A stretch of 63,416 nucleotides of DNA from Solirubrobacterales bacterium (GTDB taxonomy: Bacteria > Actinomycetota > Thermoleophilia > Solirubrobacterales > 70-9): NCBI GenBank assembly GCA_040901495.1, contig JBBDYO010000047.1, positions 1 through 63,416 on the forward strand. Reading direction: 5' to 3'. The notes below the pieces were generated by a model. It was not told where the DNA came from. It worked only from the letters and a program-made list of their open reading frames with translations, and made no database searches. A program made the translations under genes and the position numbers. Shown piece after piece: positions 6,171 to 40,228 of the stretch (its first letter is position 1; each line of letters begins with the position of its first letter).

Positions 6171-7847
6171 TCAGGAGCTCGCGCCGGCGGGATCGATCCC
6201 GGCCTCGGCCGCCGCGGCCGGCCAGGCCTCCGCCTCGCGCTCGATGCGCTCCTCCGACCAGCCCAGCTCCGCGCCGAGCACCTCGGCAACCGGGCGGGCG
6301 GCCTCGGCCGTCCGCAGCTGTGGCGCGGCGAGCAGCCCCAAGCGGGTTCGGCGGAGCAGCACGTCGGCGACGCAGCGGGCCTGCTCGAGACGGGCGGCGA
6401 TTGTCGCCTCCGCCAACAGGTCAGGGCGGCCCTCGACGATCGGCGCAGCCAGCTTCGGGTCCTCACGGGCAACGTTCAGGACGGCGCGCACCGCGTGCCC
6501 GTAGCGGAAGGCGAGCTGAGATAGCGACTCCTCCCCCACCCCCTCCGGCGCCTCCAGGTCCTCGGGGCGAGCCTCCATCCCGAGCGGGATCTCCGCCGTG
6601 TGGCAGGGCGCATCGCGGCCCTCGCGCTCGACCAGCCGGTCGACGGTTTGCTTCGCCATCCGCCGCCAGGTCGTCAGCTTGCCGCCGGTGATCGTCAGCA
6701 TCCCGGAAGAGGTCTCATATAGCTCCGCCTTGCGGGAGATGTCGACCGACTTCTTCGGGTCGCCGGTTGAGAGCAGAGGCCGCACTCCGGCGTAGGCACC
6801 GACCAGATCGTCCCGCGTCAGCGAAAGGTCGAAGAACGTATTGACCGCATCGAGCAGGTAGTCGATGTCCTCGCTGGCCGGCTGGGGGTGGTCGATGTCG
6901 CCATCGAAGTCGTTGTCGGTCGTGCCGACCAGGGTGCGCCCGTACCAGGGCAGCGCGAAGATCGCGCGGCCTTCGCCGGCCGGGACGATGCAGGCAGCGC
7001 TTCCGGTCGCAAGGTCGTTGCGGTCCAGCAGCAGGTGGGTGCCGCGGCTGGGCGTGATCCGCGGCACGTCCTCCTCCTCGAACACCTCCGGACGGATGCG
7101 GTCCGCCCAGACCCCGGTTGCGTTGACGACGTGGTCGGCTTCGACCTCGAAGCGCTCGCCCGACTCGGCCTCGACGAAGGCGACCCCGGACGCCCGGTCC
7201 TTGGTCGTCAGCACCTCGGTCACCTCGGCGCCGTTCAACATCACCGCGCCGAAGCGTTCGGCCTCCCCCAGGATGGTGAGGACCAGGCGCACGTCGTCGG
7301 TCTGGCAGTCGTAGAAGAGGTAGGCGTCCTTCGGGTCGCGAACCTCCAGCGCGGGGACCATCTCCAGCACCTCGTCGTGGTCGATCGTCCGGTGGCGGTC
7401 GGGGGACCAGTAGAAGTCCTCGTCCTCCTCCTTGGAGGACCGCATCTCCCGCCGGCCGCGACCGACCCGCGTCGTCGCCATCGCGTCGTACATGTTCAGC
7501 CCGAGCCCGAGCCCGCGCTGGCGACGCTCCTCGGCGAAGGCGGGGACGAGGAAGGGCGTCGGGTAGACGAGATGCGGCGCCAGCTGGACCATCAGCTGGC
7601 GCTCCAGCAGCGCCTCGCGAACAAGGCCGAGGTCGAAGTTCTGCAGGTAGCGGAGGCCGCCGTGGACCATCTTCGAAGAGCGGCTCGAGGTCCCGATCGC
7701 GTAGTCGCCGCGCTCCAGCAGCGCCACCGAGTAACCGCGCGAGGCGGCATCGAGGGCGACGCCGGAGCCGGTGATCCCGCCGCCGATCACGACGACCTCG
7801 AAGCGCTGTCCGGCAATCTCCTCCACCGCTGTGGCCCGGGTGAGCAT
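6171..7847 (-). CDS. glpD: FAD-dependent glycerol-3-phosphate dehydrogenase
   Basis: VVVIGGGITGSGVALDAASRG dinucleotide fold, SSRSSKMVHGGLRYL motif, 558 aa. Confidence 0.9.
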   Translation of the reverse strand: MLTRATAVEEIAGQRFEVVVIGGGITGSGVALDAASRGYSVALLERGDYAIGTSSRSSKMVHGGLRYLQNFDLGLVREALLERQLMVQLAPHLVYPTPFLVPAFAEERRQRGLGLGLNMYDAMATTRVGRGRREMRSSKEEDEDFYWSPDRHRTIDHDEVLEMVPALEVRDPKDAYLFYDCQTDDVRLVLTILGEAERFGAVMLNGAEVTEVLTTKDRASGVAFVEAESGERFEVEADHVVNATGVWADRIRPEVFEEEDVPRITPSRGTHLLLDRNDLATGSAACIVPAGEGRAIFALPWYGRTLVGTTDNDFDGDIDHPQPASEDIDYLLDAVNTFFDLSLTRDDLVGAYAGVRPLLSTGDPKKSVDISRKAELYETSSGMLTITGGKLTTWRRMAKQTVDRLVEREGRDAPCHTAEIPLGMEARPEDLEAPEGVGEESLSQLAFRYGHAVRAVLNVAREDPKLAAPIVEGRPDLLAEATIAARLEQARCVADVLLRRTRLGLLAAPQLRTAEAARPVAEVLGAELGWSEERIEREAEAWPAAAAEAGIDPAGASS

Positions 7848-8356
7848 CAGTCGAGGAAAACCGTCGTCTCGGTCACAAGCGGCCGTTCCGGTGGAGCCTG
7901 CTCCTGGCGCGGCAGGCCAAGGTGAAGCAGGCCGACGAAGCGCTCTGCGGCCGACAGCTCGACCGCCAGGCGCCCCTCCTCGGTGCGCAGCAGCTCCGGC
8001 GTCCGCCAGTACCCGGCGAAACCGCGGGCGTGCGCGGCCAGCAGCACGATGTAGGAGGCGACGGCAGCGGCGTGCAGGTCCTCCTCGTCTTGGACCGGGT
8101 CGCCGCCGAGCAGACAGGAGACGACGATCAGCGTGGGAGCGCGATCGAGCTTGGCGGCGCCCTCCGGCCCAACCGCCTCCTTCAGCCGCTCCAGCGCCCG
8201 CGGCCCGACCACGCGGAAGCGCCAGGGAGCCGTCAGGTGATGGTTGGGCGCCCAGCGGGCCAGCTCGAGCAGCCCCTCGATCTCTTCCCGCTCCAATCGC
8301 TCCGCGCCGAATGCCTTATGGGTGCGGCGGGTCCGGATCGCGGTCTCAACGTCCAT
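7847..8356 (-). CDS. small nitroreductase-family protein
   Basis: 169 aa starting MDVETAIRTRRTHKAF, with WAPNHHLTAPWRF typical of nitroreductases. The longer ORF up to 8872 overlaps the upstream gene and is Arg/Pro junk. The stop overlaps the glpD start by 1 nt. Confidence 0.7.
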   Translation of the reverse strand: MDVETAIRTRRTHKAFGAERLEREEIEGLLELARWAPNHHLTAPWRFRVVGPRALERLKEAVGPEGAAKLDRAPTLIVVSCLLGGDPVQDEEDLHAAAVASYIVLLAAHARGFAGYWRTPELLRTEEGRLAVELSAAERFVGLLHLGLPRQEQAPPERPLVTETTVFLD

Positions 8357-8438: not shown

Positions 8439-10328
8439 CTACCAGGCGAAGCGACGGCCGAAGAAGAGAACTCCGCCGAGGGCGAGTGCGGCGGTGCCGA
8501 GCCCGATTCCCAGGGGTACCCACGGGTCCGGGCCAGAGTCCTCGTCGGCCGTGAAGGGAGCCGCCGACGCGGGGGGTTCGGCCGCTGCCGATTCCGGCTC
8601 CTCGCCGACGGGCCCGGTGGTCCCTGTGCCGGGCGCGAAGGGCAGCCCTTTCTCGCCCGGGGATGCGGGCGCGGGGCTCGGGGCGCTCCCCGAACCGGAG
8701 CCGCCGCCGCCCGGGGCCGGCGATTCTGGGGCTTCTTCGGTCCCCGGCGAGACGCCTCCCCCCTGCGGCGTAGGAGCGGGTGTCGGCGACGGCCCCGGGA
8801 GGGGGTTGGGGCCGGGTTGGGTCTTGCGCGGCACCGGGGGAATCGGGAACGCCTCTTCGGCGACCGCGGCAAGCGCCTGGCCGGTCACCCATACCGGGGT
8901 CTGGTCCCTTGAGTCGGAGTACCTGTAGTGGCCGTCTTCCCCCTGGCGCGCCGCGAGGTAGTCGAGGGCGCTCTTGCCCCCCTCGCGAACCGACGCGGGG
9001 TCCTCGCCAACGGCGAGCATCCCCTGAACCGCCCAGGCGGTCGACTGGGAATTGACCTCGCCGGCGCCCCCCAACGGAAACCCACCGCTGGGACGCTGCA
9101 CGCTGCGCAGAAAGGCGAACCCGCGGCGCGCGGCCTTGGTGTCGGGCATCGCCTGCATCACGGCGGCGGTCCCGTCGGCTGTGCTCGGCGACCCGGGGAC
9201 ATCGCCCCATCCACCGTCGTCGTTCTGGATCCGGGCGAGCCATGAGATCGAGACCTTCAACCCGCCGGTCACCCCCGCCGCGCGCAGGGCGAGGACGGCG
9301 AAAGCGGTCGAGCCCGGCCAGCCCTCGAATGACCCGCTCTCTCGGCGGCGCTTTTCAAGCGCCTTGACGAGGTCATGGCCGCCGAAGGACCGCGAATCGA
9401 TCCCGGCTCCCTCGAGGGCGAGGATGGTCCGGGCGAAATCGCCGCTGCTGCTCAGCTCATCGACCTGTCCGCGCAGGAAGTCGACCGGGGTTCGCCCGAG
9501 GCGGGCGACTTCAAGCGGGTTGCGACCCGCCGCCTCGAATCCCAGCATCACCCAGGCGGTGGAGTCGGTACTCGAATCGCGGTCGGGGGAGGAGCCCCAT
9601 CCACCGTCGGCGTTCTGGACGGAGAACAGCCAGCTGGTGGCGCGCTGCTCACCGGCCGCCCGGGCCTGGGCCGGCCATGCCGTCACCACCAGCGCGACTA
9701 CCGCCAGCAGCGCCGTCGCGCCAGCCGGGACACGCCACTCGAACCGCTCCCGGAAGCGCACCAGCATCCGCACCATCGCCGGACCCGCCACAAAGGCGAG
9801 GATAGCGTTGCCGATCGCGTGGGCCAAGTCGAACGGCACCGCGCGCGACTCCAGGACGAGGAATCGCTCCATTGAGAGATCGCCGCCGTAGGTGGCCATC
9901 AAGGAGAAGTTCAGCAGAGCACCGTAGGCGATTCCGGCGAGCCCGCAGACAACGGCCAGCGTGAGGCGCCCGGGGGTGCGACCGCGGCGCGCCAGCGCGG
10001 CGCCCAAGATCCCGCAGAGGCCCCAGCCGGCCATCTGCCAGGGCGTCCAGGGGCCCTGCCCAAACCAGAAGTTCGAGACCAGCGCGGCCAGCGCCCCGAC
10101 AGCGAACCCCGGCGCGCCGCCGAGCGCGATGCCGGCGAAGATGACGATGTCGGTGGTCGGCTTGACGTTGGGAAAGGCGGCAAAGGCGATCCGACCGGCG
10201 ATCGCCAGCGCGGCCAGGACAGCGACCAGCGCAACGACCTGGGAGGTCGGCCGCGAGCGCTCATACCAGGCGAAGCCCGCGATCAAGACGGCGCCGAGGA
10301 TCAGGAAGCTGGCCAGCTCCCAGGACAT
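8439..10328 (-). CDS. ECF transporter S-component-like membrane module fused to a prenyltransferase/squalene-cyclase-repeat (alpha/alpha toroid) domain, Pro-rich linker and C-terminal TM anchor
   Basis: N-terminal ~200 aa with multiple TM helices (NVKPTTDIVIFAG, SNFWFGQGPWTPWQM). Then repeats QNADGGWG, ESGSFEGW, QNDDGGWG, QRPSGGF and RQGEDGHYRY. A Pro/Gly-rich stretch follows, and the final helix ends LFFGRRFAW. Confidence 0.7.
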   Translation of the reverse strand: MSWELASFLILGAVLIAGFAWYERSRPTSQVVALVAVLAALAIAGRIAFAAFPNVKPTTDIVIFAGIALGGAPGFAVGALAALVSNFWFGQGPWTPWQMAGWGLCGILGAALARRGRTPGRLTLAVVCGLAGIAYGALLNFSLMATYGGDLSMERFLVLESRAVPFDLAHAIGNAILAFVAGPAMVRMLVRFRERFEWRVPAGATALLAVVALVVTAWPAQARAAGEQRATSWLFSVQNADGGWGSSPDRDSSTDSTAWVMLGFEAAGRNPLEVARLGRTPVDFLRGQVDELSSSGDFARTILALEGAGIDSRSFGGHDLVKALEKRRRESGSFEGWPGSTAFAVLALRAAGVTGGLKVSISWLARIQNDDGGWGDVPGSPSTADGTAAVMQAMPDTKAARRGFAFLRSVQRPSGGFPLGGAGEVNSQSTAWAVQGMLAVGEDPASVREGGKSALDYLAARQGEDGHYRYSDSRDQTPVWVTGQALAAVAEEAFPIPPVPRKTQPGPNPLPGPSPTPAPTPQGGGVSPGTEEAPESPAPGGGGSGSGSAPSPAPASPGEKGLPFAPGTGTTGPVGEEPESAAAEPPASAAPFTADEDSGPDPWVPLGIGLGTAALALGGVLFFGRRFAW

Positions 10329-12073
10329 CAGGCCCCCGCTCCCGGCTCATCGGGGGCACCGGGCGGCCGGGCCTCTCTGAGGCGCGCCGCGCCCTGCTCG
10401 GGGGTCACGACACCGGGAAGGTCGAGGATCCGGGCCACCTCGGTGGCGAAGTACCAACCGCCGGAGAGGATCTCCGCGGCATCGCCGTCGGCGATCACGA
10501 CCCCGTCGCCGAGGAGGACAACCCGCTCCGCAAAGGCCGCGGCGAACTCGACGTCGTGAGTGGCGACCATCACGCCAGCGCCACCGGCCGCGAAGCGTTC
10601 GATCAAGGCGACCAGGTCGTCCTTGCGGCCGCGATCCATCCCCCTGGTCGGCTCATCGAGGGCGACCAGCCCCGGCAGCTCTTGCTGCTCCATCCTGCCG
10701 GCCAGCGCGATCGCCAGCGCCAGCCTCTGCCGCTCGCCGCCCGAGAGGTCGCGCGGATCGGTATCGAGCGCGTGCTCCAGGCCCACCGTGCGCAAGGCGA
10801 CCAGGCCCAGGGCCCCCGGCAGCTCGTCCTCGACTCGCTCCCGGACCAGGTAGTCGGAGGGGTTCTGGGTCAGCAGCGCGATCCCGCCCGGCGCCTCCGC
10901 CTTGCCCCGGACCGGGCGAACAAGTCGTGCCGCGGCCCGCAGCAGGGTGCTCTTCCCGGCCCCGTTGCGCCCCATCAGCGCGACCCGTTCTCCAGCATGC
11001 ACGTCCAGCTCTATCCCTCGCAGCACGTCCCGGGCGCTCTCGCCGTCGCCAAGCTCGACCCATAGGTCCTTCGTCTCGAGCGCCATCGGATTTAGAGGAG
11101 GCTGGGGGCCTTGGTGGCGCGCTGGGTTTTTCGCCGTGGGCGATGCTTCGTTTGGAGAGTGGTCTGTGCGAAAAACAGGACGCCGCGCGCCACCAAGACC
11201 CCCAGCCTCCTCTCCAGTCGTGGTGCTTCTTCGCGCAAGGGCTTGGCGAGCTTGGCGCACACCGGTCGGGAGCGGGTCTATTCCGGCCAGTGAGAAGAGG
11301 CGGGCGCCCGGGGTCTCCAGCGCCGGGTCCGCGTCGCTTGCCCAGGCGAGGAAGTCGCCGGGGGCGCCGTCGAAGGCGATCGCACCCGAGTCCATCGCGA
11401 TGACGCGGTCGGCGGCGGCGAGGCAGCGCTCCAGCCGGTGCTCGGCGAGGAGCACCGTCACCCCCCACTCCTCGTTGAGGCGGCGCAAGAGCCAGATCAG
11501 CTCATCGCCGGCGACGGGGTCGAGCTGGGAGGTCGGCTCGTCGAGCAGGACCAGCTGCGGGCGCGTGACCAGAGCGGCGGCAAGGGCGACGCGCTGGATC
11601 TCCCCCCCGGAGAGCGTGTCGACCGTTCGTTCGAGGAGCTGGGGGATCGCCAAGGCCAGGGCCACCTCCTCCACCGCTCGCGCGCGAGACGCAGGGGCCT
11701 CGCCGCGCATCTCGAGGGGCAGCTCGATCTCCGCCGCGACGGTGGTCGAGACGACCTGGGTCTCGGGGTCCTGGGCCACATAGCCGACCGCGGTGGCCAG
11801 CTCGCCCGGGCCGCTGGAGATTGCGTCGAGGCCGGCGACGCTGACGCCACCGGAGATCTCCCCGCCGTGGAAGTGGGGAACCAGGCCGCAGGCCGCGCGC
11901 AGCAGGGTCGACTTCCCGCAAGCCGAGCGCCCGGCGAGCAAGGCGAACTCCCCGGCCCCCAACTGGGTCGAGACCCCGGCGAGGGCCGGGCGGGTGGCGT
12001 GCGGATAGCTGTAGGTGAGCTCATCCACCACGAGGGCAGGAGTGGACCGGGACGGAGCGGCGAGCTCAGGCAC
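10328..12073 (-). CDS. ECF transporter ATPase with two fused ABC domains (EcfA-EcfA')
   Basis: Two Walker A motifs (GRSACGKST, GRNGAGKST), two signatures (LSGGEIQR, LSGGERQR) and two Walker B motifs (LLDEPT, ALDEPT). The likely GTG start at 12073 overlaps the ecfT stop. The N-terminal extension to 12454 in the ORF track is out-of-frame junk over ecfT. Confidence 0.8.
   Translation of the reverse strand: MPELAAPSRSTPALVVDELTYSYPHATRPALAGVSTQLGAGEFALLAGRSACGKSTLLRAACGLVPHFHGGEISGGVSVAGLDAISSGPGELATAVGYVAQDPETQVVSTTVAAEIELPLEMRGEAPASRARAVEEVALALAIPQLLERTVDTLSGGEIQRVALAAALVTRPQLVLLDEPTSQLDPVAGDELIWLLRRLNEEWGVTVLLAEHRLERCLAAADRVIAMDSGAIAFDGAPGDFLAWASDADPALETPGARLFSLAGIDPLPTGVRQARQALARRSTTTGEEAGGLGGARRPVFRTDHSPNEASPTAKNPARHQGPQPPLNPMALETKDLWVELGDGESARDVLRGIELDVHAGERVALMGRNGAGKSTLLRAAARLVRPVRGKAEAPGGIALLTQNPSDYLVRERVEDELPGALGLVALRTVGLEHALDTDPRDLSGGERQRLALAIALAGRMEQQELPGLVALDEPTRGMDRGRKDDLVALIERFAAGGAGVMVATHDVEFAAAFAERVVLLGDGVVIADGDAAEILSGGWYFATEVARILDLPGVVTPEQGAARLREARPPGAPDEPGAGA
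11094..11213. repeat. 120-nt palindromic (foldback) element in-frame in the ecfA inter-domain linker
   Basis: 29-nt arms at 11094-11122 and 11185-11213 are reverse complements with one mismatch, which becomes G-U on the coding-strand RNA. An inner 9-nt pair is GTTTTTCGC (11126-11134) and GCGAAAAAC (11168-11176). Confidence 0.85.
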
Positions 12074-12968
12074 GCGACGCCTCTGGCGCGGAGTGGCGGG
12101 CCGGGCGACGACGGAGCGGCGCGAAGCCGCTCGCGACGATGAGCGCACAGATCGCCACGGTCGAGGGGCGGATCCCCACCTCGACGGTCGGGTAGAAGCG
12201 GACGTCGTTGGCGCCCAGCAGCAGGCCGGCGATGGCAACAGCCAGAAGCAGCGCCCCCACCGTGTAGAAGCGCGCGTCATAGCGGGAGCGGGATCGAGCT
12301 CCCTTCGCCCGGGGCGCGTCGAGGCCGTAGCCGCGCAGCTCCAGTGTCGCGGCGACGTCGACGGCACGGTCGAGCGATCCGGCGAGGAGCCGGCGGGCGA
12401 GGGCGGCGCGGCCCAGCGGCGCGGCAGCCGGCCCGCGAAGGCGGCCGGCGTCACGGAGGCGCACCGCGTCCGCGGCGGCCACCGGGACGAGGCGCGAGAC
12501 CAGCGCCGCGGTCAGCGCCGAGCGGCCGGCCAGCGGCCGCAGGGCGCGGAGCACCCGGTCTGGATCGACGCAGGCCGAGTAGACGGCAAAGGCGACCATC
12601 GCGACGGCGGCGCGGAGGCCGATCACCGCACCGGCGACGATCGCCTCAGCGGTGACATCGACCCGGCCGAACAGCGGCCACTCGCCAAGCCGCAGCAGCA
12701 CAGTGTCGCCACGGTCGACGACAAGCGCGTTGACCGCAACGATCAGCACCGCGAGCGTCAGGCCCATCCACAGCGCGGCGCGGACGGCGTCGCGCGCGCC
12801 GGCGTTAAGGCCCGCCAGGACCACCGCGATCCCTGCGGCCACCAGCACAGCCGGGTTCGAGTAGAGAAAGGTCACGGTGACCAGAGCGCCGAGATAGGCG
12901 ACCGCCGCGCCGGGCGACGCCGACTGCAACGGTCCAGGCTTGGGCGTGTAGGCAAATGGCGATCTCAT
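12066..12968 (-). CDS. ECF transporter transmembrane component EcfT (CbiQ family)
   Basis: 300 aa from MRSPFAYTPK, multiple TM helices and Arg-rich coupling-helix region (RSALTAALVSRLVP ... RLRDAGRLRG). Overlaps its neighbours at both ends. Confidence 0.7.
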   Translation of the reverse strand: MRSPFAYTPKPGPLQSASPGAAVAYLGALVTVTFLYSNPAVLVAAGIAVVLAGLNAGARDAVRAALWMGLTLAVLIVAVNALVVDRGDTVLLRLGEWPLFGRVDVTAEAIVAGAVIGLRAAVAMVAFAVYSACVDPDRVLRALRPLAGRSALTAALVSRLVPVAAADAVRLRDAGRLRGPAAAPLGRAALARRLLAGSLDRAVDVAATLELRGYGLDAPRAKGARSRSRYDARFYTVGALLLAVAIAGLLLGANDVRFYPTVEVGIRPSTVAICALIVASGFAPLRRRPARHSAPEASRA

Positions 12969-13882
12969 CGCACCGGAAGCGGTGTCGTCTTCCCACCTTC
13001 GACAGCCACCGCGTAATGGTCCCGCAGGCTGGCGGCGTCGAGCAGCTCGGCGGCGGAGAGCACGCCGCGGGCATCGGCACCGGTGACGATCCAGACCGGA
13101 GGAGCGTCGTATCGCCGCGTCGCGGCGACCAGGCCGGCACCGGGGCCAAACCGACGAACGAACTCGCCGCCTTCGTCGAGGCCTTGCAGTTCGAAGCGCG
13201 ACCCGCGCCGCGCGAAGTCCGCGAACACCCCGCTTTCCTGCGGACCCGACTCGAGCTGCGCGGCCACCGCCACCTCGCGAACCCGCCCCCACGGACCGAC
13301 CAGGACTTCGATCGCGTCCTCCGGCGAGCCGGTAGCCGGAGAGACGCCCGCTCCTTCAAGTCGTTCCCGCACCATGGCGCAAGCCTCCCCACCGCCCCGG
13401 CAATCCACCGTCACCGGGTGCTCCTCTTCGTCGTATCCACCGAGGAACGGCTGGGGCCAGGACCCGACCACCGCCGGCACTCGCGACGCAGCCGACCAGT
13501 CGCGGTAGTCCCACCAGATCGCCTCGCCCCCATGCATTGAGTAGTCCGCCGCGCCCACCGGAGACTCAACCCCGTTGACGTAGAAGAACCAGTCGTAGCG
13601 CCGGCCGGCATGCACGTCTTCTGAGACCCCGTTGATCGACGCCACGAACCCGCCGCCGTAGCGGGTCGAGATCTCGGCGTTGCGATCGAGGACCCGCATC
13701 ACCGTGTCGGACTCGGTGATGTCCTCGGAGATTGGCGCGACAACGTCGGCCGCGCCGAAGTCCCTCGTCACTCTGACTTCGGCCTCACCGACCTCCTCGC
13801 CGGCGCCGAAGCCGCTGCCGGCGGCCGCGAGCGCTGCTCCAAGCAGCGCAATCGCGACCGCCGTAACGCGGCGTGCCTTCAA
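12965..13882 (-). CDS. secreted DUF4430-domain protein (transcobalamin beta-domain-like) with extra C-terminal domain
   Basis: Signal peptide KARRVTAVAIALLGAALAAAGS. Core YGGGFVASINGV ... RYDWFFYVNG typical of DUF4430. TTG start at 13882 preceded by AAGGCAGG; alternative upstream starts up to 13951. Confidence 0.65.
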   Translation of the reverse strand: MKARRVTAVAIALLGAALAAAGSGFGAGEEVGEAEVRVTRDFGAADVVAPISEDITESDTVMRVLDRNAEISTRYGGGFVASINGVSEDVHAGRRYDWFFYVNGVESPVGAADYSMHGGEAIWWDYRDWSAASRVPAVVGSWPQPFLGGYDEEEHPVTVDCRGGGEACAMVRERLEGAGVSPATGSPEDAIEVLVGPWGRVREVAVAAQLESGPQESGVFADFARRGSRFELQGLDEGGEFVRRFGPGAGLVAATRRYDAPPVWIVTGADARGVLSAAELLDAASLRDHYAVAVEGGKTTPLPVR

Positions 13883-13892
13883 GGAACCTGCC

Positions 13893-14630
13893 TTAGGGGC
13901 ACTTACCACCGATGCAGACCGCCTCGCGGTTGGAGGGGATGTCCTTCCCATGCGTGGCGATCAACTCAGTCGGCTTGTTGATGACCACCTCTGTGCCGCC
14001 GTCGTTGCCGGTGAGGCCGGTCCCACCGGTCACCTTGACGCCGGAGGCCGGTCTTTTTTTGCCCGTGTCGTCGTAGGTGAAGACATGGACTTCGAACGGC
14101 TTGCCGGCGACTGCTTTGCCAGGAGCCCTCAGCGAGAGCTCATTGGGGTAAGGGAACCCGGCGAGCGCCCAGAGGACTTCGTCGCCTTTCTTCACCTTCA
14201 CCGACTCGCCCCCGATTTCGGGGTTTTTGTGGTTGACCTTCAGGTACCAGGAGCGTTTCGGGGTGTAAACGGATTTACCGATCCCGCAGAGCCCGAGCCC
14301 GAAGTCGAAGGCGTCGGTGATCAGCAACGGCCGCAGCGCCGCCGTGTACTTGGATGCCTGAATCAGCATGCCGAGCGCGGTCGGGCCTTTGATCGTCAAT
14401 TTGCTGCCGCTGCCGCCGGTCCCGGAGCCGAAGCAATCCGCTTTCGGGCTCGCGACCACCGACGTGGTGGCGGTCCCGAACGAGTCTTCGGCCAGCACCT
14501 TGTTGCCGCTCCCGACGACGCGCAGATCCGCGACCGGCCCTTTGGCCACCGCGATTGCCGCGGTCGAGAGGATGAGAATTGAGGCCAGCACGCACGCGGC
14601 GACCAGCCGATTTGGAATGAGTCTTGGCAT
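13893..14630 (-). CDS. secreted DUF4430-like protein with Ig-like C-terminal domain
   Basis: Signal peptide MPRLIPNRLVAACVLASILILSTAAIAVA. Contains WYLKVNHKNPEIGGESVKVKKGDEVLW, then a beta-rich FEVHVFTYDDTGK domain. First gene after the riboswitch. Confidence 0.55.
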   Translation of the reverse strand: MPRLIPNRLVAACVLASILILSTAAIAVAKGPVADLRVVGSGNKVLAEDSFGTATTSVVASPKADCFGSGTGGSGSKLTIKGPTALGMLIQASKYTAALRPLLITDAFDFGLGLCGIGKSVYTPKRSWYLKVNHKNPEIGGESVKVKKGDEVLWALAGFPYPNELSLRAPGKAVAGKPFEVHVFTYDDTGKKRPASGVKVTGGTGLTGNDGGTEVVINKPTELIATHGKDIPSNREAVCIGGKCP

Positions 14631-14661
14631 TTAAGCCACCCTTTCCTCGAGGGTTGTCATG

Positions 14662-14845
14662 GCTCGGCCGGGGACAGGTCTCCTGGCTTCCGGGGTGATT
14701 GGCCGCACCTTCCCAGGGACTCAGTGTCGCCCCCAGTGGCTGGCGCAACGTGCGCCTGCGACTTCCTTGCCCGGTCACAGTGGCGGGACCGCGCCGGTTT
14801 CTCACCGGACTTCCCTTGACCACCGACCGTATGTACGCGGGTGAG
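14662..14845 (-). promoter_or_regulatory. cobalamin (B12) riboswitch
   Basis: The minus strand reads GGUGGUCAAGGGAAGUCCGGUGAGAAACCGGCGCGGUCCCGCCACUGUGACCGGG ... GCCAGCCACUGGGGGCGACACUGAGUCCCUGGGAAGGUGCGGCC ... GGAAGCCAGGAGACCUGUCCCC. This gives the B12 box (plus coordinates 14672-14688) and two GCCACUG elements in canonical order. Confidence 0.9.
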
Positions 14846-14985: not shown

Positions 14986-15687
14986 ATGAGGCAACGGAAT
15001 CGGTTCGGTTCACCGGCTTTGATCATCGCGATCATCGCGATGTTCATAGCCCTTGGCGGCACTGCTGTCTACGCAGCCAAGAAGATCGACGGCAAGTCGA
15101 TCAAAGTGAAGTCAATTCCGGGCAACCGCCTCAAGCCGCGCTCCGTCACCGCCAAGCAGCTCAGCCTGGGAGTGCTGCTCGGCGCCGAATCCGCCCAGAT
15201 CACCGGCAAACAGATCAACGAGGCGAGCCTCGGTCAGGTCCCGAGTGCCATCCACGCCAATACGGCCGATACCGCCCGCAGCGCCACCGACGCCCTCACC
15301 GCGCTGACCGCGGTGAATGCCATCTCCGCGGAAAAAATCAACGGCCACAGCGCCGGCTGCCTGCCGGGGACACAACTCTTCGCCGGTGCCTGTTGGGAGA
15401 GCTCGGCCAGTACCAATGTTGCCGACGCAGTGAGCGCCGCAGTTTCTTGCGGCTTTAAAGGCGGAACGCTCCCTAGTGCTCTTGAGCTTTCGGCCTTTGC
15501 CCAAGGATCTGGAGCAACACTCGATGCAGGAGGTGAGTGGGCGAGCGACATTGTGAGCTTCACAAGCAAAAACGTCTTCGCAGTGGGCACCGTGACCTCT
15601 GATGGGGCAATTGACTCGGCCATCTTCAATAGCGGCGGGATGAGCGCGAACAGGAAATTCCGCTGCGTGATTCCCCTGGTCAAGTAA
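14986..15687 (+). CDS. membrane-anchored hypothetical protein with fibre-like middle and Cys-containing globular C-terminus
   Basis: Strong RBS AAGGGGGGAT before the ATG and an N-terminal TM helix ALIIAIIAMFIALGG. The C-terminal part (GGTLPSALELSAFA) vaguely resembles Lcl/DUF1566-type domains. Confidence 0.5.
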   Translation: MRQRNRFGSPALIIAIIAMFIALGGTAVYAAKKIDGKSIKVKSIPGNRLKPRSVTAKQLSLGVLLGAESAQITGKQINEASLGQVPSAIHANTADTARSATDALTALTAVNAISAEKINGHSAGCLPGTQLFAGACWESSASTNVADAVSAAVSCGFKGGTLPSALELSAFAQGSGATLDAGGEWASDIVSFTSKNVFAVGTVTSDGAIDSAIFNSGGMSANRKFRCVIPLVK

Positions 15688-15753: not shown

Positions 15754-16674
15754 ATGCGACGGCGCACGCCCAGGGTTAGACAGCGCTTCGTGGGCGCCAT
15801 CGTGGCACTCGCGTGCCTGGCACTGCTCGCGCCCATCGGGCCCGCCAGCGCCTCCACCCGCCTGCACCCAGCTGCGCCGGCGGCCAATGGCGAAGTGAAG
15901 CGCGTGCTCAACTACTGGACGCCGGACAGGATGCGCAACGCCCGGCCTCTCGACGCACCGCTGTTCAGCTCCACCGCGACCGCCAGCTTCGCCCCCGTCA
16001 CCGAACCGACCGTTGCGCCGCGCATCGTCAACGGCCGCCTCTTCGTTCGTCAGCAGGGCAGCCAGGGCTTCTGCTCCGCCACCGCGATCAACAGCCCGTC
16101 CCGGCAACTGATCCTGACCGCGGGACACTGCGTCAACTCCGGCCCGCTGGGCTTTCGCGGCAACAGCGCTTGGTCACGCTACGTTCAGTTCGTCCCGGCC
16201 TACACCGACGGCATCGCGCCCTTTGGCGCGTTCGTGGCCCGTCGCAACTTCGTCTTCGCCCCGCGGCAATGGGTCGAGTTCGGCAACTCAAACTTCGATG
16301 TCGGCGCGATCCTCACCTCGCCCAACGCCGAAGGGGTAAACGTCGCGGATGCGGTCGGTGGCGCGACGATCGTCACCGACCTCACCCGTCGCCAGCGGTT
16401 CCAGACCTTCGGCTATCCCGGCAAATCCACCTCGATGCAGGGCTGCGAATCGCCGTACGTCGGCGACGATGTCCTCACCTACCAAGCCCCCGGCCCGCCA
16501 ACCCTCGCGATCCGCTGCCACTGGGCACCTGGGGCAAGCGGTGGGGGCTGGCTGATCAACGAAGGGACCGCGATCAACGGGCTGACCAGCTACGGCAAAC
16601 GCCGCGACCGGGTCCACACCTTCAGCCCGTACTTCAGTAGTCGCACCGTCGGCCGCCTTGTGGCGGGCATGTAG
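15754..16674 (+). CDS. secreted trypsin-like (S1) serine peptidase
   Basis: Signal peptide, catalytic His motif LTAGHCV, catalytic Ser motif GASGGGW. Confidence 0.75.
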   Translation: MRRRTPRVRQRFVGAIVALACLALLAPIGPASASTRLHPAAPAANGEVKRVLNYWTPDRMRNARPLDAPLFSSTATASFAPVTEPTVAPRIVNGRLFVRQQGSQGFCSATAINSPSRQLILTAGHCVNSGPLGFRGNSAWSRYVQFVPAYTDGIAPFGAFVARRNFVFAPRQWVEFGNSNFDVGAILTSPNAEGVNVADAVGGATIVTDLTRRQRFQTFGYPGKSTSMQGCESPYVGDDVLTYQAPGPPTLAIRCHWAPGASGGGWLINEGTAINGLTSYGKRRDRVHTFSPYFSSRTVGRLVAGM

Positions 16675-27988: not shown

Positions 27989-28141
27989 GGCGCGAGTCTA
28001 TCCGCGACGCATCAGTGCAGTCGAAACCGTTTCAACTTCATTCTTGACATTCCTGATGAACATTGTGTTAGGGTGCCCGCCTCTTTTAGAACCAAGTTAG
28101 TCAAGAAACTAAGCAACTCAAGAAAGAAGGGGAGCACCCCA

Positions 28142-29170
28142 ATGCCAAACGCCCGTGAGAAAACCCGGTGGAGCAACGTGAGCGTCGGCCTCATGGCCGC
28201 CCTCCTCGTCCTCGCCTTTGCAGCTGTGGGAATCGGCTGCGGCTCCTCCGACTCGACGAGCGGTGGCAAGCTCGACATCGTCGGCTACTCCACCCCGGAG
28301 GCCGTCTATGAGGAAGCGCTCGAGCCCGGCTTCGAAGCTACCCCTGAGGGCGCTGACGTCAGCTTCAGCAACTCCTTCGGCGCCTCTGGCGACCAGAGCC
28401 GCGCGGTCGAGGCCGGCCAGCCTGCCTCGGTCATCCACTTCGCCCAGGGCGGCGACATGATCCGCCTGGTCGAATCCGGCCAGGTCGCAGCCGACTGGGA
28501 CAAGCAGCAGTACGACGGCATCGCCCAGGACTCGGTGATGGTGCTGACGGTCCGCAAGGGCAACCCCGAGGGCCTCGAGTCGATCGACGACCTGCTCACC
28601 GAGGACGTCGAGATCATCACCCCCAACCCGTTCAGCTCCGGAGCCGCCCGCTGGAACATCATGGCGATCTACGGCTCGCAGCTGCACCAGGGCAAATCCG
28701 AGCAGGAGGCGCTCGACGCGGTCAAGACCGTGCTTGAGAAGACAGTGGTCCAGCCGGGCAGCGCCCGCGACGCGCTTGCCGCCTTCACCCAGGGCGAGGG
28801 CGACGTGCTCCTCGGCTACGAGAACGAGGCGATCAAGGCCCAAACCGAGGGCGAGGACGTCGATTACGTGATCCCGCCGAGCACGATCCTGATCGAGACT
28901 CCGATCGCGGTCACCAAAGACGCTCCGGAGTCCGCGCAGAAGTTCCTCGACTACATCTGGTCGGACGCCGGCCAGGAACTCTGGGCTGAGAACGGCTACC
29001 GGCCGGTCAACCCGAAACTGGTCGACGAGAAGCAGTTCCCGACCCCCGAGGACCTGTTCACGATCGACGAGTTCGGCGGCTGGGCAACGGTCAACGACGA
29101 GTTCTTCGACGACGAAACCGGCTCGGTAGCCGAGATCGAGAAGGAACTCGGAGTCTCCACCAGCGGCTGA
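28142..29170 (+). CDS. sulfate/thiosulfate ABC transporter substrate-binding lipoprotein
   Basis: Lipobox AVGIGC, Sbp/CysP-like sequence, RBS GAAGGGGAG, followed by cysTWA. Confidence 0.85.
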   Translation: MPNAREKTRWSNVSVGLMAALLVLAFAAVGIGCGSSDSTSGGKLDIVGYSTPEAVYEEALEPGFEATPEGADVSFSNSFGASGDQSRAVEAGQPASVIHFAQGGDMIRLVESGQVAADWDKQQYDGIAQDSVMVLTVRKGNPEGLESIDDLLTEDVEIITPNPFSSGAARWNIMAIYGSQLHQGKSEQEALDAVKTVLEKTVVQPGSARDALAAFTQGEGDVLLGYENEAIKAQTEGEDVDYVIPPSTILIETPIAVTKDAPESAQKFLDYIWSDAGQELWAENGYRPVNPKLVDEKQFPTPEDLFTIDEFGGWATVNDEFFDDETGSVAEIEKELGVSTSG

Positions 29171-30075
29171 TGGACGCTCACCCGGCAAACATTCCCCCAT
29201 CCACAGCACCCCGGGCGGGCATCCGCCTGCCCGGGCTCGGCGTCGGCCTCGGTCGAGGCATGGTCGTCCTCTACCTGTCCCTGATGGTGATGCTGCCGCT
29301 GGCCGCCGTGGTCGCCGAGTCGACCAGCGGTGGCTTCGGCGCCTTCTGGAACTCGGTCACCGGCGCCCAGTCGCTGGCAGCGCTGAAACTGACCGTGATC
29401 AGCTCGCTGATCGTGGTCGCGATCAACGCGGTCTTCGGCACGATCATCGCCTGGGTCCTGGTCCGCGACGAGTTCCCCGGCAAGGGCGCCGTCAACGCTC
29501 TAATCGACCTCCCCTTCGCGCTGCCGACGATCGTCGCCGGCCTGACCCTGCTGACGCTCTACGGATCCGAGAGCCCGTTCGGCCTCAACATCGCCTTCAC
29601 CAGGGTGGCGATCGTGGTCGCCCTCTGCTTCATCACCCTGCCCTTCGTCGTCCGCGCGGTGCAACCGCTGCTGATGGAGATGGACCGTGAGATGGAGGAG
29701 GCGGCGACCTCGCTCGGCGCCGGCGGCTTCACCGTCTTCCGGCGGATCATCTTCCCCAACCTGTTGCCGGGAATCGTCGCCGGTGTCCTGCTCGCCTTCG
29801 CGCGGGCGCTGGGCGAGTACGGCTCGCTGATCCTGATCTCCGGCAACCGCCCCTTCGAAACCGAGGTCTCCTCGGTCTTCATCCGCAGCCAAATCGAGAC
29901 CGGCAACGTCGCCGGCGCATCCGCGGTGTCGGTCGTGCTGCTGGCGATCTCGCTGGCGCTGCTGATCGGGGTCAGCCTCTTCGCTCGCTCCGGCGCGCAC
30001 GGTGAGAAGCGGAGCATCTTCGGACGCCTCTTCAAGCGGCTCTTTGACCGCTACGGGGGGGTGTACAACAAGTGA
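29170..30075 (+). CDS. cysT: sulfate ABC transporter permease CysT
   Basis: Six-TM permease with EAA loop (EEAATSLGAGGFTVFRRIIFP). Start overlaps the sbp stop. Confidence 0.85.
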   Translation: MDAHPANIPPSTAPRAGIRLPGLGVGLGRGMVVLYLSLMVMLPLAAVVAESTSGGFGAFWNSVTGAQSLAALKLTVISSLIVVAINAVFGTIIAWVLVRDEFPGKGAVNALIDLPFALPTIVAGLTLLTLYGSESPFGLNIAFTRVAIVVALCFITLPFVVRAVQPLLMEMDREMEEAATSLGAGGFTVFRRIIFPNLLPGIVAGVLLAFARALGEYGSLILISGNRPFETEVSSVFIRSQIETGNVAGASAVSVVLLAISLALLIGVSLFARSGAHGEKRSIFGRLFKRLFDRYGGVYNK

Positions 30076-30947
30076 CCCCCGCCAAGCCCGCCAAATGGGG
30101 CCTTCGCACCCTCGCCTTCGGCTACCTGGGCCTGCTTCTGCTGGCCCCGGTGGGAATGATCTTCTACAAGACCTTCGAGCACGGCCTCGGGCCGCCGATC
30201 GAAGCGATGACCTCGCCCGACGCCATTCACGCGATCTGGCTGACGCTGCTGATGGTCGCGGTCGCGGTACCGCTGAACACGATCTTCGGGGTCGTCTGCG
30301 CGCTGCTGCTCGTCCGCCACAAGTGGAAGGGCAACGCGGTGCTCGACGGGATCATCAACCTCCCCTTCGCGATCTCCCCGATCGTCGTCGGCCTGGCGCT
30401 GTTCCTGCTCTACGGAAACGACGGCTGGTTCGGGCCGACGCTGAGCGAATGGGGCATCCAGGTCCTCTTCTCAACCCCGGGGATGATCCTCGCCAGCGTC
30501 TTCGTCTCGCTGCCATTCGTCGTCCGCGAGGTGGTCCCGGTCCTGCAGGAGATCGGCACCGAGCAGGAGCAGGCGGCCTCCACCCTGGGCGCCAACGGCT
30601 GGCAGACCTTCTGGCGAGTCACCCTGCCGGCGATCCGCTGGGGGGTCGCCTACGGAGTCGTGCTGACCACCGCCCGCGTGCTGGGCGAGTTCGGCGCGGT
30701 GACGATCGTCTCCGGCTCGATCTCGGGCGAGACCGAGACGCTGCCGCTGTTCGTCGCTAAGGCCTTCGAGCAGTTCAACGAGGAAGCCGCCTACGCCGGC
30801 GCGATCGTCCTCGCCCTGCTCGCTCTGACCACCCTGCTGCTGATGAGCATCGGCGGCCGCAAAACGAAGGCCCAGTCCAGCGGGCCGATCCCGATCACGG
30901 GTGACGTCCCAATCTCAACGTCCAAATCAAAGGAGGAGGGTTCCTGA
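30072..30947 (+). CDS. cysW: sulfate ABC transporter permease CysW
   Basis: Second permease with EAA loop ([21 protein letters not shown]). 4-nt overlap with cysT. Confidence 0.85.
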
Positions 30948-31990
30948 TGGGAATCGCAGTCGAGGGAGCGCGCAAGCGCTTCGGTGACTTTCAGGCTCTT
31001 GACGATGTTTCGATAAACGTGCCCGACGGCTCGCTGACGGCGCTGCTCGGGCCCAGCGGCAGCGGCAAGTCGACGCTGCTGCGGGCGATCGCCGGGCTGG
31101 AGACGCTCGATGCCGGCCAGGTTGTGATCAACGGCGCCGATGCGACGGCGACGCCGGCGCAGAAGCGCGAGGTCGGCTTCGTCTTCCAGCACTACGCGGC
31201 CTTCAAGCACATGACGGTGTTCGGGAACGTCGCCTTCGGGCTGAAGATCCGCAAGTGGGAGAAGGCCAAGATCAGCGACCGGGTGCACGAGCTGCTGCGC
31301 CTGGTCCAGCTCGACGGCCTCGCCGAGCGCTACCCCGACCAGCTCTCCGGCGGCCAGCGCCAGCGCATGGCCCTGGCCAGGGCGCTGGCGGTCGAGCCGC
31401 AGGTCCTCCTGCTCGATGAGCCGTTCGGGGCGCTTGACGCGAAGGTCCGCAAGGACCTGCGCACCTGGCTGCGCCGCCTCCACGACGAGATGCACGTGAC
31501 GACGATCTTCGTCACCCACGACCAGGAGGAGGCGATGGACGTCGCCGAGCAGCTGGTCGTGATGAACGAAGGCCGGGTCGAGCAGTCGGGGACCGCCGAC
31601 GACCTCTATGACCATCCCGCCAACGAGTTCGTGATGAGCTTCGTCGGCGAGGTCAACCGGCTCGGCGAGCACTTCGTCCGGCCGCACGACATGGAGGTCG
31701 TGCTCGATGCCGACGAGCGGACCGAGGAGGCGATGGTCCAGCGGATCGTCGCGCTCGGCTTCGAGATCCGGGTCGAGTTCGTGCTCGGCGACGGCACCGA
31801 GGTATGGGCCCAGCTGACCCGTAGCGAGCTCCAGAAGCTGGAGTTGCGCGAGGGCCAGATCGTCTACCTGCGGCCCGGGCAAATCAAGAGCTTCAGCGGT
31901 GATGCGCCATCGCCTAACGGCCGCGGGGCCTCGACTCCCCGCGACCCAGAGGGCGATGACGACGTGGAGGTTTCCTCCGCAGCCGCCTGA
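30947..31990 (+). CDS. cysA: sulfate ABC transporter ATP-binding protein CysA
   Basis: [17 protein letters not shown] and LLLDEPF motifs, plus a TOBE-like C-terminal domain. Confidence 0.9.
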
Positions 31991-40108: not shown

Positions 40109-40228
40109 TTTGACCCTCCGTATTTCCCAGCGCGAATCGTCGCGATCCGCTCAAGAAACCTTACGTGCAAAGCGCCCTCGGTGCAACCGCACCTCGACGG
40201 AACACTGAGCGACGTGCCTGCCGAGTGG

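Follow-up and report, generated by a model that had tools for sequence, protein, structure and literature searches.

A cobalamin-riboswitch operon of Solirubrobacterales predicted to encode a CbrT-type corrinoid importer with transcobalamin-like accessory domains

We analysed a stretch of 63,416 nucleotides (nt) of DNA from a Solirubrobacterales bacterium (lineage Actinomycetota; Thermoleophilia; Solirubrobacterales; 70-9; assembly GCA_040901495.1, contig JBBDYO010000047.1, positions 1-63,416), hereafter called the window. The locus under study occupies positions 8439-14845 of its minus strand. It consists of a cobalamin riboswitch followed by five co-oriented genes that encode two exported proteins with DUF4430-type domains (g1 and g2), the membrane protein EcfT, a tandem ATPase (EcfA-A') and a fusion of an S-component with an alpha/alpha toroid. 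We propose, with a probability of roughly 0.6, that this operon encodes a dedicated energy-coupling factor (ECF) corrinoid importer of the CbrT family, which would be repressed by the riboswitch when B12 is sufficient and would be served by extracytoplasmic DUF4430 and toroid domains that capture the corrinoid and hand it off. The parts of this proposal differ in strength. That the operon imports corrinoids is likely; a specific clamp made by the toroid together with a DUF4430 domain has somewhat less than an even chance. The features of the locus are listed below.

14656-14839, minus strand: cobalamin riboswitch aptamer (RF00174), found with the Rfam covariance model
14634-14664, minus strand: leader hairpin containing the Shine-Dalgarno sequence, read from the sequence
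13893-14630, minus strand: g1, secreted protein of 245 amino acids (aa), ATG start, with a signal peptide, a divergent DUF4430/SLBB domain and an immunoglobulin (Ig)-like part
12965-13882, minus strand: g2, DUF4430 protein of 305 aa, TTG start, assigned from Pfam, AlphaFold2 (AF2) and Foldseek
12066-12968, minus strand: EcfT (CbiQ family), 300 aa, assigned from Pfam CbiQ
10328-12073, minus strand: EcfA-EcfA' tandem ATPase, 581 aa, GTG start, with two ABC_tran matches
8439-10328, minus strand: S-component-toroid fusion, 629 aa, assigned from Pfam, AF2 and phmmer
9732-10328, minus strand: CbrT-like S-component module, fusion residues 1-199, from phmmer and profile searches against PDB
9657-9731, minus strand: extra (seventh) transmembrane helix, predicted from hydropathy and AF2
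8844-9656, minus strand: predicted extracytoplasmic alpha/alpha toroid, fusion residues 225-495, from AF2, Foldseek and repeats
8439-8843, minus strand: predicted disordered linker (496-600), C-terminal anchor (603-624) and stop codon, from composition, hydropathy and AF2

The junctions between the five genes overlapped or nearly did so. A 10-nt gap separated g1 from g2, g2 and EcfT shared an ATGA overlap, the EcfT stop and the GTG start of EcfA-A' overlapped by 8 nt, and EcfA-A' met the fusion gene in a TGATG overlap. The five genes are translationally coupled. The TTG start of g2 agreed with a public gene call (P0121). Profile searches identified EcfT as a member of the Pfam CbiQ family (PF02361, 44.6 bits). 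The best NCBIfam models for EcfA-A' were the ECF_ATPase models TIGR04520 (233 bits) and TIGR04521 (219 bits), both under their equivalog cut-offs (233 vs 315), as expected because the protein is fused and divergent. With EcfT, two ECF-type ATPase domains and an S-component in one operon, the locus has the make-up of a group I ECF transporter, which uses a dedicated module. The components named in the original prediction, EcfT, a tandem EcfA and an S-component followed by about five repeats, were all recovered: CbiQ, two ABC_tran stretches (145 bits), ECF_trnsprt (PF12822) at 28.9 bits, under its cut-off of 30.7, and five QxxDGGW-type repeats in the toroid.

Against RF00174, whose gathering score is 31.5, the riboswitch reached 76.9 bits with an E-value of 3.3e-17, and the match spanned all model positions from 1 to 189. 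Within the aptamer, the B12 box (AGCCAGGAGACCUGUCC), a pair of GCCACUG elements and the core (GGGAAGUCCGGUGAGAAACCGG) could be made out, in agreement with the canonical minus-strand cobalamin riboswitch claimed in the original prediction. The same prediction placed five co-oriented, overlapping or abutting genes about 35 nt downstream; this arrangement held, and the distance had to be corrected, as the ATG of g1 (14630) lies 25 nt past the end of the aptamer. A leader hairpin (AGCCA..CCCU-CGAGGAA-AGGG-UGGCU) holds the Shine-Dalgarno sequence (GAGGAAAGG) and ends 3 nt from this ATG. The hairpin core (CCCUCGAGGAAAGGG) was identical in 60 of 63 related loci, with slightly variable flanking bases; in 62 loci it lay 19-22 nt from the ATG, while L068 had a spacing of 28 nt. 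The ~30 nt between aptamer and ATG were nearly invariant across the 63 loci. Because the hairpin core was kept even where the identity of g1 was down to 34-50%, we conclude that the leader RNA sequence itself is under strong selection. No intrinsic terminator was found between the aptamer and the ATG, and the minimum-free-energy fold of the leader was no better than that of shuffled sequences (z -0.42). The riboswitch likely acts by controlling translation initiation, as far as the sequence of the leader allows us to infer. A loop-loop contact between the leader hairpin and the aptamer is one possibility; no kissing-loop partner for the platform hairpin was identified. Orthologues of the aptamer were found with nhmmer in 67 related loci, and the Rfam model confirmed a riboswitch in all seven of the most divergent loci (50.9-85.1 bits) as well as in a distant locus, L087 (66.9 bits).

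The first part of the fusion protein points to the type of transporter. Searched against PDB with phmmer, residues 28-199 aligned with residues 8-179 of 6fnp_A over 172 residues (E 5.8e-14), including the PNVxPxTDI motif, and a profile search of the same database returned 6fnp_A with an E-value of 6.2e-15. We took this chain (182 aa) as CbrT, since it is the sole membrane chain of ~180 aa in the ECF-CbrT entry 6FNP. No other S-component in PDB, CbiM and NikM chains included, was matched by phmmer at E <= 10. The homology stopped precisely at the end of CbrT, where RFRERFEWR in the fusion faces RFKKKAGWK. Sequence comparison thus identifies the S module as a full-length CbrT homologue. To our knowledge, CbrT is the only ECF S-component proven to act on B12.

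Beyond the S module, the RFRERFEWR stretch lies just before a seventh hydrophobic helix (residues 197-225 by hydropathy, 202-236 in the AF2 model), behind which the toroid is fused. The toroid is followed by a linker (residues 496-600) with 28 Pro and 19 Gly in 105 residues, where the predicted local distance difference test score (pLDDT) of the AF2 model fell below 50 (505-603), and by a C-terminal anchor helix (603-624 by hydropathy, 603-626 by AF2); the chain ends in RRFAW. The positive-inside rule was satisfied at both anchors. We placed the toroid outside the cell because it is fused behind the extra transmembrane helix and because of the positive-inside rule. In the predicted topology, the toroid would be tied at one end to the S-component and at the other, via the Pro/Gly linker, to a second anchor helix.

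The toroid itself was recognised by Pfam as SQHop_cyclase/Prenyltrans repeats and was modelled with a pLDDT above 90 over most of residues 230-470 and of 65-90 towards residue 500. The best Foldseek matches were squalene-hopene-cyclase-like proteins, drimenyl-diphosphate synthase and prenyltransferase beta subunits (E ~2e-7). No DxDD motif was present anywhere in the fusion, and no Cys in residues 225-495; the toroid is therefore neither a class II cyclase nor a zinc prenyltransferase. On the structural model, it is best described as a non-catalytic alpha/alpha barrel that is like the transcobalamin alpha domain in fold, not in family. The operon lies outside the PF01122 class (transcobalamin, intrinsic factor and haptocorrin), with the alpha-type and beta-type domains found on separate proteins. 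Membership of NCBIfam NF053823 (SCO2321 family membrane protein) was considered and rejected, as the score was 115.6 bits against an equivalog cut-off of 300; the fusion is a related toroid membrane protein.

The second partner of the proposed clamp is a DUF4430 domain. The g2 product matched Pfam DUF4430 (PF14478) with 56.4 bits, above the gathering score. Its AF2 model (mean pLDDT 79.8) contained an N-terminal beta-grasp in which a hairpin follows the helix, in the order strands 30-40 and 45-56, helix 61-68, hairpin 71-74/79-83 and further strands. In the searched text of Burroughs et al. 2007 (PMC1796856), a beta-grasp with a post-helix hairpin marks out the transcobalamin-like SLBB clade. 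The top PDB matches in Foldseek were intrinsic factor (3kq4, 2pmv), transcobalamin (7qbe, 2v3n, 2bb6, 8ixu) and haptocorrin (4kki), together with an uncharacterised DUF4430 protein of R. gnavus (3u7z). Compared with the isolated transcobalamin beta domain (5no0, 5np4), the target-normalised template modelling score (TM-score) was 0.64-0.69; the Foldseek E-values for the B12 carriers were modest (7e-4 to 8e-3). The modelled structure supports a fold of the g2 DUF4430 domain like that of the beta domain of intrinsic factor, transcobalamin and haptocorrin, the relationship on which the original prediction had relied. The most conserved stretches of the g2 family (STRYGGGFVxSIDG, DWFFYVNGVE and GGEAIWWDYRDW) map to the hairpin and the final strands, which are given as the B12-contacting regions of transcobalamin in the same searched text (PMC1796856). 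Their position would be consistent with corrinoid binding and is not proof of it.

The C-terminal alpha/beta domain of g2 (~150-305; 12965-13435) matched no Pfam family and gave weak fold matches to BcsB and alpha-glucuronidase domains with Foldseek. It was highly conserved, also in the distant locus L087. Codon 23 of g2 (AGC, 13814-13816) encodes Ser in the window copy, at the position taken by the Cys of a lipobox (LAAAGC) in 46 of 47 aligned members, which are predicted from this motif to be lipoproteins. The window codon differs from TGC by a single A/T change and could reflect a true loss of the lipid anchor, or a sequencing or assembly error.

The g1 product carries a signal peptide of the Sec type (cleavage between AVA and KG) and is more divergent. 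Among its orthologues, 32 of 40 matched DUF4430 (best E 5e-7) with the C-terminal half of the model in the central region of the protein, and because of these matches we count g1, sub-threshold in the window copy, as a DUF4430 protein. The claim of two signal-peptide DUF4430 proteins in the original prediction was therefore borne out directly for g2 and through orthologues for g1. The C-terminal part of g1 was Ig-like, with 2 of 40 orthologues matching Big_1. A sequence search of PDB with the g1 and g2 family profiles matched no transcobalamin; the comparison of folds was needed because the families are too divergent, and their alignments too shallow, for profiles.

To follow the operon across genomes, species-representative genomes were scanned with a narrow toroid alignment, which retrieved almost only Solirubrobacterales and gave at least 582 loci. 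The detailed comparison covered the best 80 loci, almost all from metagenome-assembled genomes (MAGs) of Solirubrobacterales. Enough upstream flank was available in 67; 11 others end at contig ends, and two (L067 and L019) are different loci. All 67 loci with sufficient flank showed the identical order riboswitch-g1-g2-EcfT-EcfAA'-S-toroid, and the distant locus L087 likewise contained the riboswitch and all five genes. The gene neighbourhood, which the original prediction had suggested surveying, is thus conserved. At L087, the riboswitch is followed by an Ig-like protein, homologues of g1 (hhalign 96.5%) and g2 (hhalign 100%), CbiQ, a tandem ATPase and an S-component-toroid-PAP2 phosphatase triple fusion (P0324, L087:7001-9451), with a convergent gene for a PduO-type cobalamin adenosyltransferase. 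The fusion protein had thousands of relatives; the best 120 were all full-length (615-643 aa, 65-79% identity), several of them named as Solirubrobacterales. When toroid cluster representatives were taken at no more than 50% mutual identity, 53 of the best 150 carried an S part, and 32 of these 53 were matched directly by CbrT of L. delbrueckii. DUF4430 and toroid were also found in one polypeptide (P0350 and P0378). At L085, the DUF4430-toroid fusion P0350 is flanked by a protein with a beta-propeller and two DUF4430 domains and by a BtuF-type binding protein.

Judged from these gene fusions, the joining of S-component and toroid is strong Rosetta-stone evidence that the toroid would work physically with the CbrT-type transporter, and the DUF4430-toroid fusions would be similar evidence for joint action of those two parts.

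Other relatives differed in their organisation. The protein directly upstream of P0350 (L085:3-1562) combines a beta-propeller (PQQ_2/BamB-like) with its two DUF4430 domains; we presume that it resembles BtuG, the beta-propeller B12 binder of Bacteroides. Two giant proteins (P0301 and P0310, 1505-1786 aa) each had four toroid matches. In one Solirubrobacterales MAG, a stand-alone toroid gene of 474 aa (L067:8845-10269) occupies the same genomic slot, bounded by the two conserved upstream genes and by the nitroreductase gene and glpD, and this slot lacks riboswitch, DUF4430 and ECF genes. It may represent a natural reduction of the operon or a replacement by a paralogue. L019, a second locus in the MAG of L004, shows a partial EcfA match followed by S-component and toroid, with inverted nitroreductase and glpD fragments upstream, and could have arisen by rearrangement of a duplicated copy or through faulty assembly.

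We hypothesize the following mechanism. Once the aptamer has bound B12, the Shine-Dalgarno sequence would be hidden in the conserved hairpin, which would block translation of g1 and, via coupling, of the downstream genes. Outside the cell, a DUF4430 protein and the toroid would capture a corrinoid. Because the toroid is covalently joined to the CbrT-like S-component, the ligand would be released beside the S pocket; the S-component would then topple against EcfT, and the EcfAA' ATPase would drive import, as in ECF-CbrT. The two DUF4430 paralogues may divide the ligands between them, with one for complete cobamides and one for cobinamide, or may have separate roles, one acting as a free or lipid-anchored scavenger and the other as a docking partner. 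It is a more tentative suggestion, and perhaps a doubtful one, that the fusion and the DUF4430 proteins make up a trans-assembled, membrane-tethered bacterial counterpart of transcobalamin feeding corrinoids to the S-component.

The B12 gene context of relatives argues for the proposed capture and import of corrinoids: nrdJ and pduO are found nearby, with PduO beside L087 and a BtuF-type protein in L085. Several observations weigh against it. The S part of the AF2 model had a pLDDT of ~50, so that the position of the toroid over the S pocket is not given by the model, and the window copy of g1 scored 22.4 bits with Pfam DUF4430, just under the cut-off of 23.8. Rat transcobalamin (8ixt) ranked only 49 among the Foldseek matches of the toroid (E 3.5e-4, 321 aligned columns), and no match to Pfam Cobalamin_bind (PF01122) was found for the toroid or the operon proteins at E <= 0.01; of the earlier claim that the toroid is like the transcobalamin alpha domain, the alpha/alpha toroid was retained and a close likeness was not. 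ECF-CbrT functions in E. coli without any accessory protein (PMC5997447), and the Lactobacillus cbrT locus has a small DUF4430 protein only and no toroid; a toroid/DUF4430 clamp is therefore not needed for CbrT function. Finally, the sole experimental study of a related operon, that of L. sakei, assigned it to heme uptake (bioRxiv 10.1101/864751).

Part of this evidence feeds the main rival explanation, a corrinoid importer without a clamp, in which the DUF4430 proteins bind the ligand alone, as the small CbrS of Lactobacillus presumably does, and the toroid is a spacer or scaffold spanning the thick cell envelope, a docking platform or a binder of another moiety. Besides the unaided transport of B12 by ECF-CbrT in E. 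coli, the toroid-free Lactobacillus loci and the closer resemblance of the toroid to cyclase and prenyltransferase barrels than to transcobalamin, it can draw on PDB entry 5np4, an isolated transcobalamin beta domain with cyanocobalamin bound, and on the stand-alone and multi-toroid proteins found in other contexts, L067 among them. It accounts less well for the relatives in which DUF4430 and this type of toroid are fused in single proteins, for transcobalamin itself, which combines a toroid with a beta-grasp (searched text of PMC1796856), and for the fusion of the toroid specifically to a CbrT-like S-component in many lineages. We regard this explanation as unlikely, and as the one that deserves most attention among the alternatives.

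A substrate other than a corrinoid is less probable. Import of heme or another non-corrin tetrapyrrole would agree with the heme-uptake phenotypes reported for the similarly organised L. sakei operon and with the use of Peripla_BP_2 partners, as in L085, for heme, siderophores and B12. It is nevertheless improbable, given a cobalamin riboswitch at every locus examined, an S module homologous to CbrT and neighbouring genes in relatives that are B12 genes (pduO, nrdJ); no link to iron or heme regulation was seen in the window. We consider it very improbable that the operon encodes a CbiMNQO-type ECF transporter for cobalt or nickel. EcfT does belong to the Pfam CbiQ family, cobalt-transporter ATPase models score well on EcfA, and B12 riboswitches often govern cobalt import; against this, the S module matched CbrT and, as stated above, no CbiM or NikM chain, the operon has neither a CbiM nor a CbiN gene, and the accessory domains are of the type that binds organic ligands. 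The best sequence and fold matches of the toroid could also be taken to mean that this domain is a working enzyme, a terpene cyclase or prenyltransferase with an envelope lipid as its substrate, and that the link to the riboswitch is incidental. This reading is scarcely credible for a domain that lacks both the DxDD acid of class II cyclases and the Cys of a zinc site, is predicted to be extracytoplasmic and is invariably found within a riboswitch-gated ECF operon.

Outside the operon, a nitroreductase-family gene (7847-8356, minus strand, 169 aa) begins 83 nt past the fusion gene. Homologues were present in 67 related loci; in most cases the gene came directly behind the fusion gene, with glpD next in line. 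We considered whether it encodes BluB, or a CblC-like B12-processing enzyme, and rejected the BluB assignment at 22 bits against a cut-off of 150. Since glpD and the upstream genes are conserved along with it, the nitroreductase gene was left out of the system, and its position may be general synteny. Two divergent genes upstream of the riboswitch (14986-15687 and 15754-16674, plus strand) had no NCBIfam match and were syntenic in 52 and 35 related loci, respectively. No B12-related function was seen among the twenty other open reading frames of the window. The window also contains a copper-resistance cluster (37550-42142, minus strand) with a multicopper oxidase beside a CopC-CopD fusion, a 603-aa RTX-repeat protein (49180-50991, plus strand) and a four-gene binding-protein-dependent ATP-binding cassette (ABC) importer with a TOBE domain (28073-31990, plus strand), none with a link to B12.

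ECF transporters are textbook importers that work without soluble binding proteins, and accessory capture proteins would qualify this rule. If the more tentative suggestion of a trans-assembled counterpart of transcobalamin is true, no earlier ECF transporter would have been shown to need binding proteins outside the cytoplasm, and the operon would serve as a living model of the bacterial forerunner of animal B12 carriers. The operon would also allow the idea that transcobalamin and intrinsic factor arose in bacteria to be studied experimentally in a tractable bacterial system. Solirubrobacterales are an abundant lineage of soil bacteria, and the operon is very frequent among them, with at least 582 loci found here; it therefore bears on B12 sharing in soil communities.

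The closest characterised transporter is CbrT of L. delbrueckii, a proven transporter of cobalamin and cobinamide (Santos et al. 2018, PMC5997447; PDB 6FNP). The same authors cite an nrdJ-cbrS-cbrT-pduO cluster (PMC5997447). In Lactobacillus helveticus and Lacticaseibacillus zeae, we found a DUF4430 protein of 129-136 aa preceding the CbrT orthologue, between a class II (B12-dependent) ribonucleotide reductase and PduO; because this cluster corresponds to nrdJ-cbrS-cbrT-pduO, CbrS is a DUF4430 protein. The statement of the original prediction that ECF-CbrT has no such accessories is thus contradicted by the DUF4430 gene cbrS that flanks cbrT in Lactobacillus. Profile comparison gave a weak relation between g1 and g2 (hhalign probability 10.6%, E 0.003) and ~1% for CbrS against the g1 and g2 profiles; as these probabilities are low, the three are linked solely via the Pfam DUF4430 model. 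The operon resembles ECF-CbrT in its homologous S module, in an energising module of EcfT and EcfA/A' and in a DUF4430 gene, which in Lactobacillus lies beside cbrT. It differs in having a dedicated ECF module in the same operon, with the ATPases fused in tandem, and an S-component with an extra helix, a toroid ectodomain, a linker and a second anchor. Two larger DUF4430 proteins are found here, compared with one of ~130 aa, and a cobalamin riboswitch gates the operon, unlike the Lactobacillus cbrT loci, at which none was found.

A similar set of parts occurs in the ECF operon lsa1836-1840 of L. sakei, which encodes separate secreted proteins like the beta (Lsa1839) and alpha (Lsa1840) parts of transcobalamin (Verplaetse et al. 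2019, bioRxiv 10.1101/864751). Both operons combine alpha-like and beta-like accessories with EcfT, EcfAA' and an S-component, and a model of hand-off to the S-component was already proposed for L. sakei. In L. sakei the toroid is secreted as a protein of its own, in contrast to the fusion with the S-component seen here; one beta-like protein is found there and two here; and the authors of the L. sakei study assign heme as the substrate and describe the S-component as devoid of cobalamin-binding residues.

A broader precedent comes from Burroughs et al. 2007 (PMC1796856), whose searched text describes secreted SLBB/DUF4430 proteins, alone or with a toroid, in operons with CbiO-like and CbiQ-like genes, and predicts scavenging of B12 or its precursors. 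According to that text, a second SLBB paralogue is frequent and the hosts usually lack key B12 biosynthesis enzymes; the clade is presented as a Gram-positive innovation, and animal transcobalamin is proposed to have been acquired from Gram-positive bacteria. The operon studied here shares with those operons the secreted SLBB/DUF4430 proteins, the toroid, the second paralogue and the CbiO- and CbiQ-like genes. The toroid-S-component fusion and the control by a riboswitch are not described in the searched text, in which 'riboswitch' had no match. With this prediction and the L. sakei study (bioRxiv 10.1101/864751) in print, the original remark that such an architecture had not been characterised was an overstatement.

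Similarly to transcobalamin, intrinsic factor and haptocorrin, the system pairs an alpha/alpha toroid with a beta-grasp (DUF4430) domain. The eukaryotic carriers are one soluble chain with the domains in alpha-beta order, whereas separate, membrane-tethered proteins are predicted here, and unlike in those carriers the toroid is nearer to terpene-cyclase barrels than to the transcobalamin alpha domain. In a literature search lacking most subscription journals, we found no account of a toroid covalently joined to a CbrT-like S-component, of two larger DUF4430 proteins carrying additional domains, of such strict gating by a riboswitch or of the prevalence in Solirubrobacterales. The basic concept was already published in 2007 and 2019; what is new here is a defined, riboswitch-anchored variant of it.

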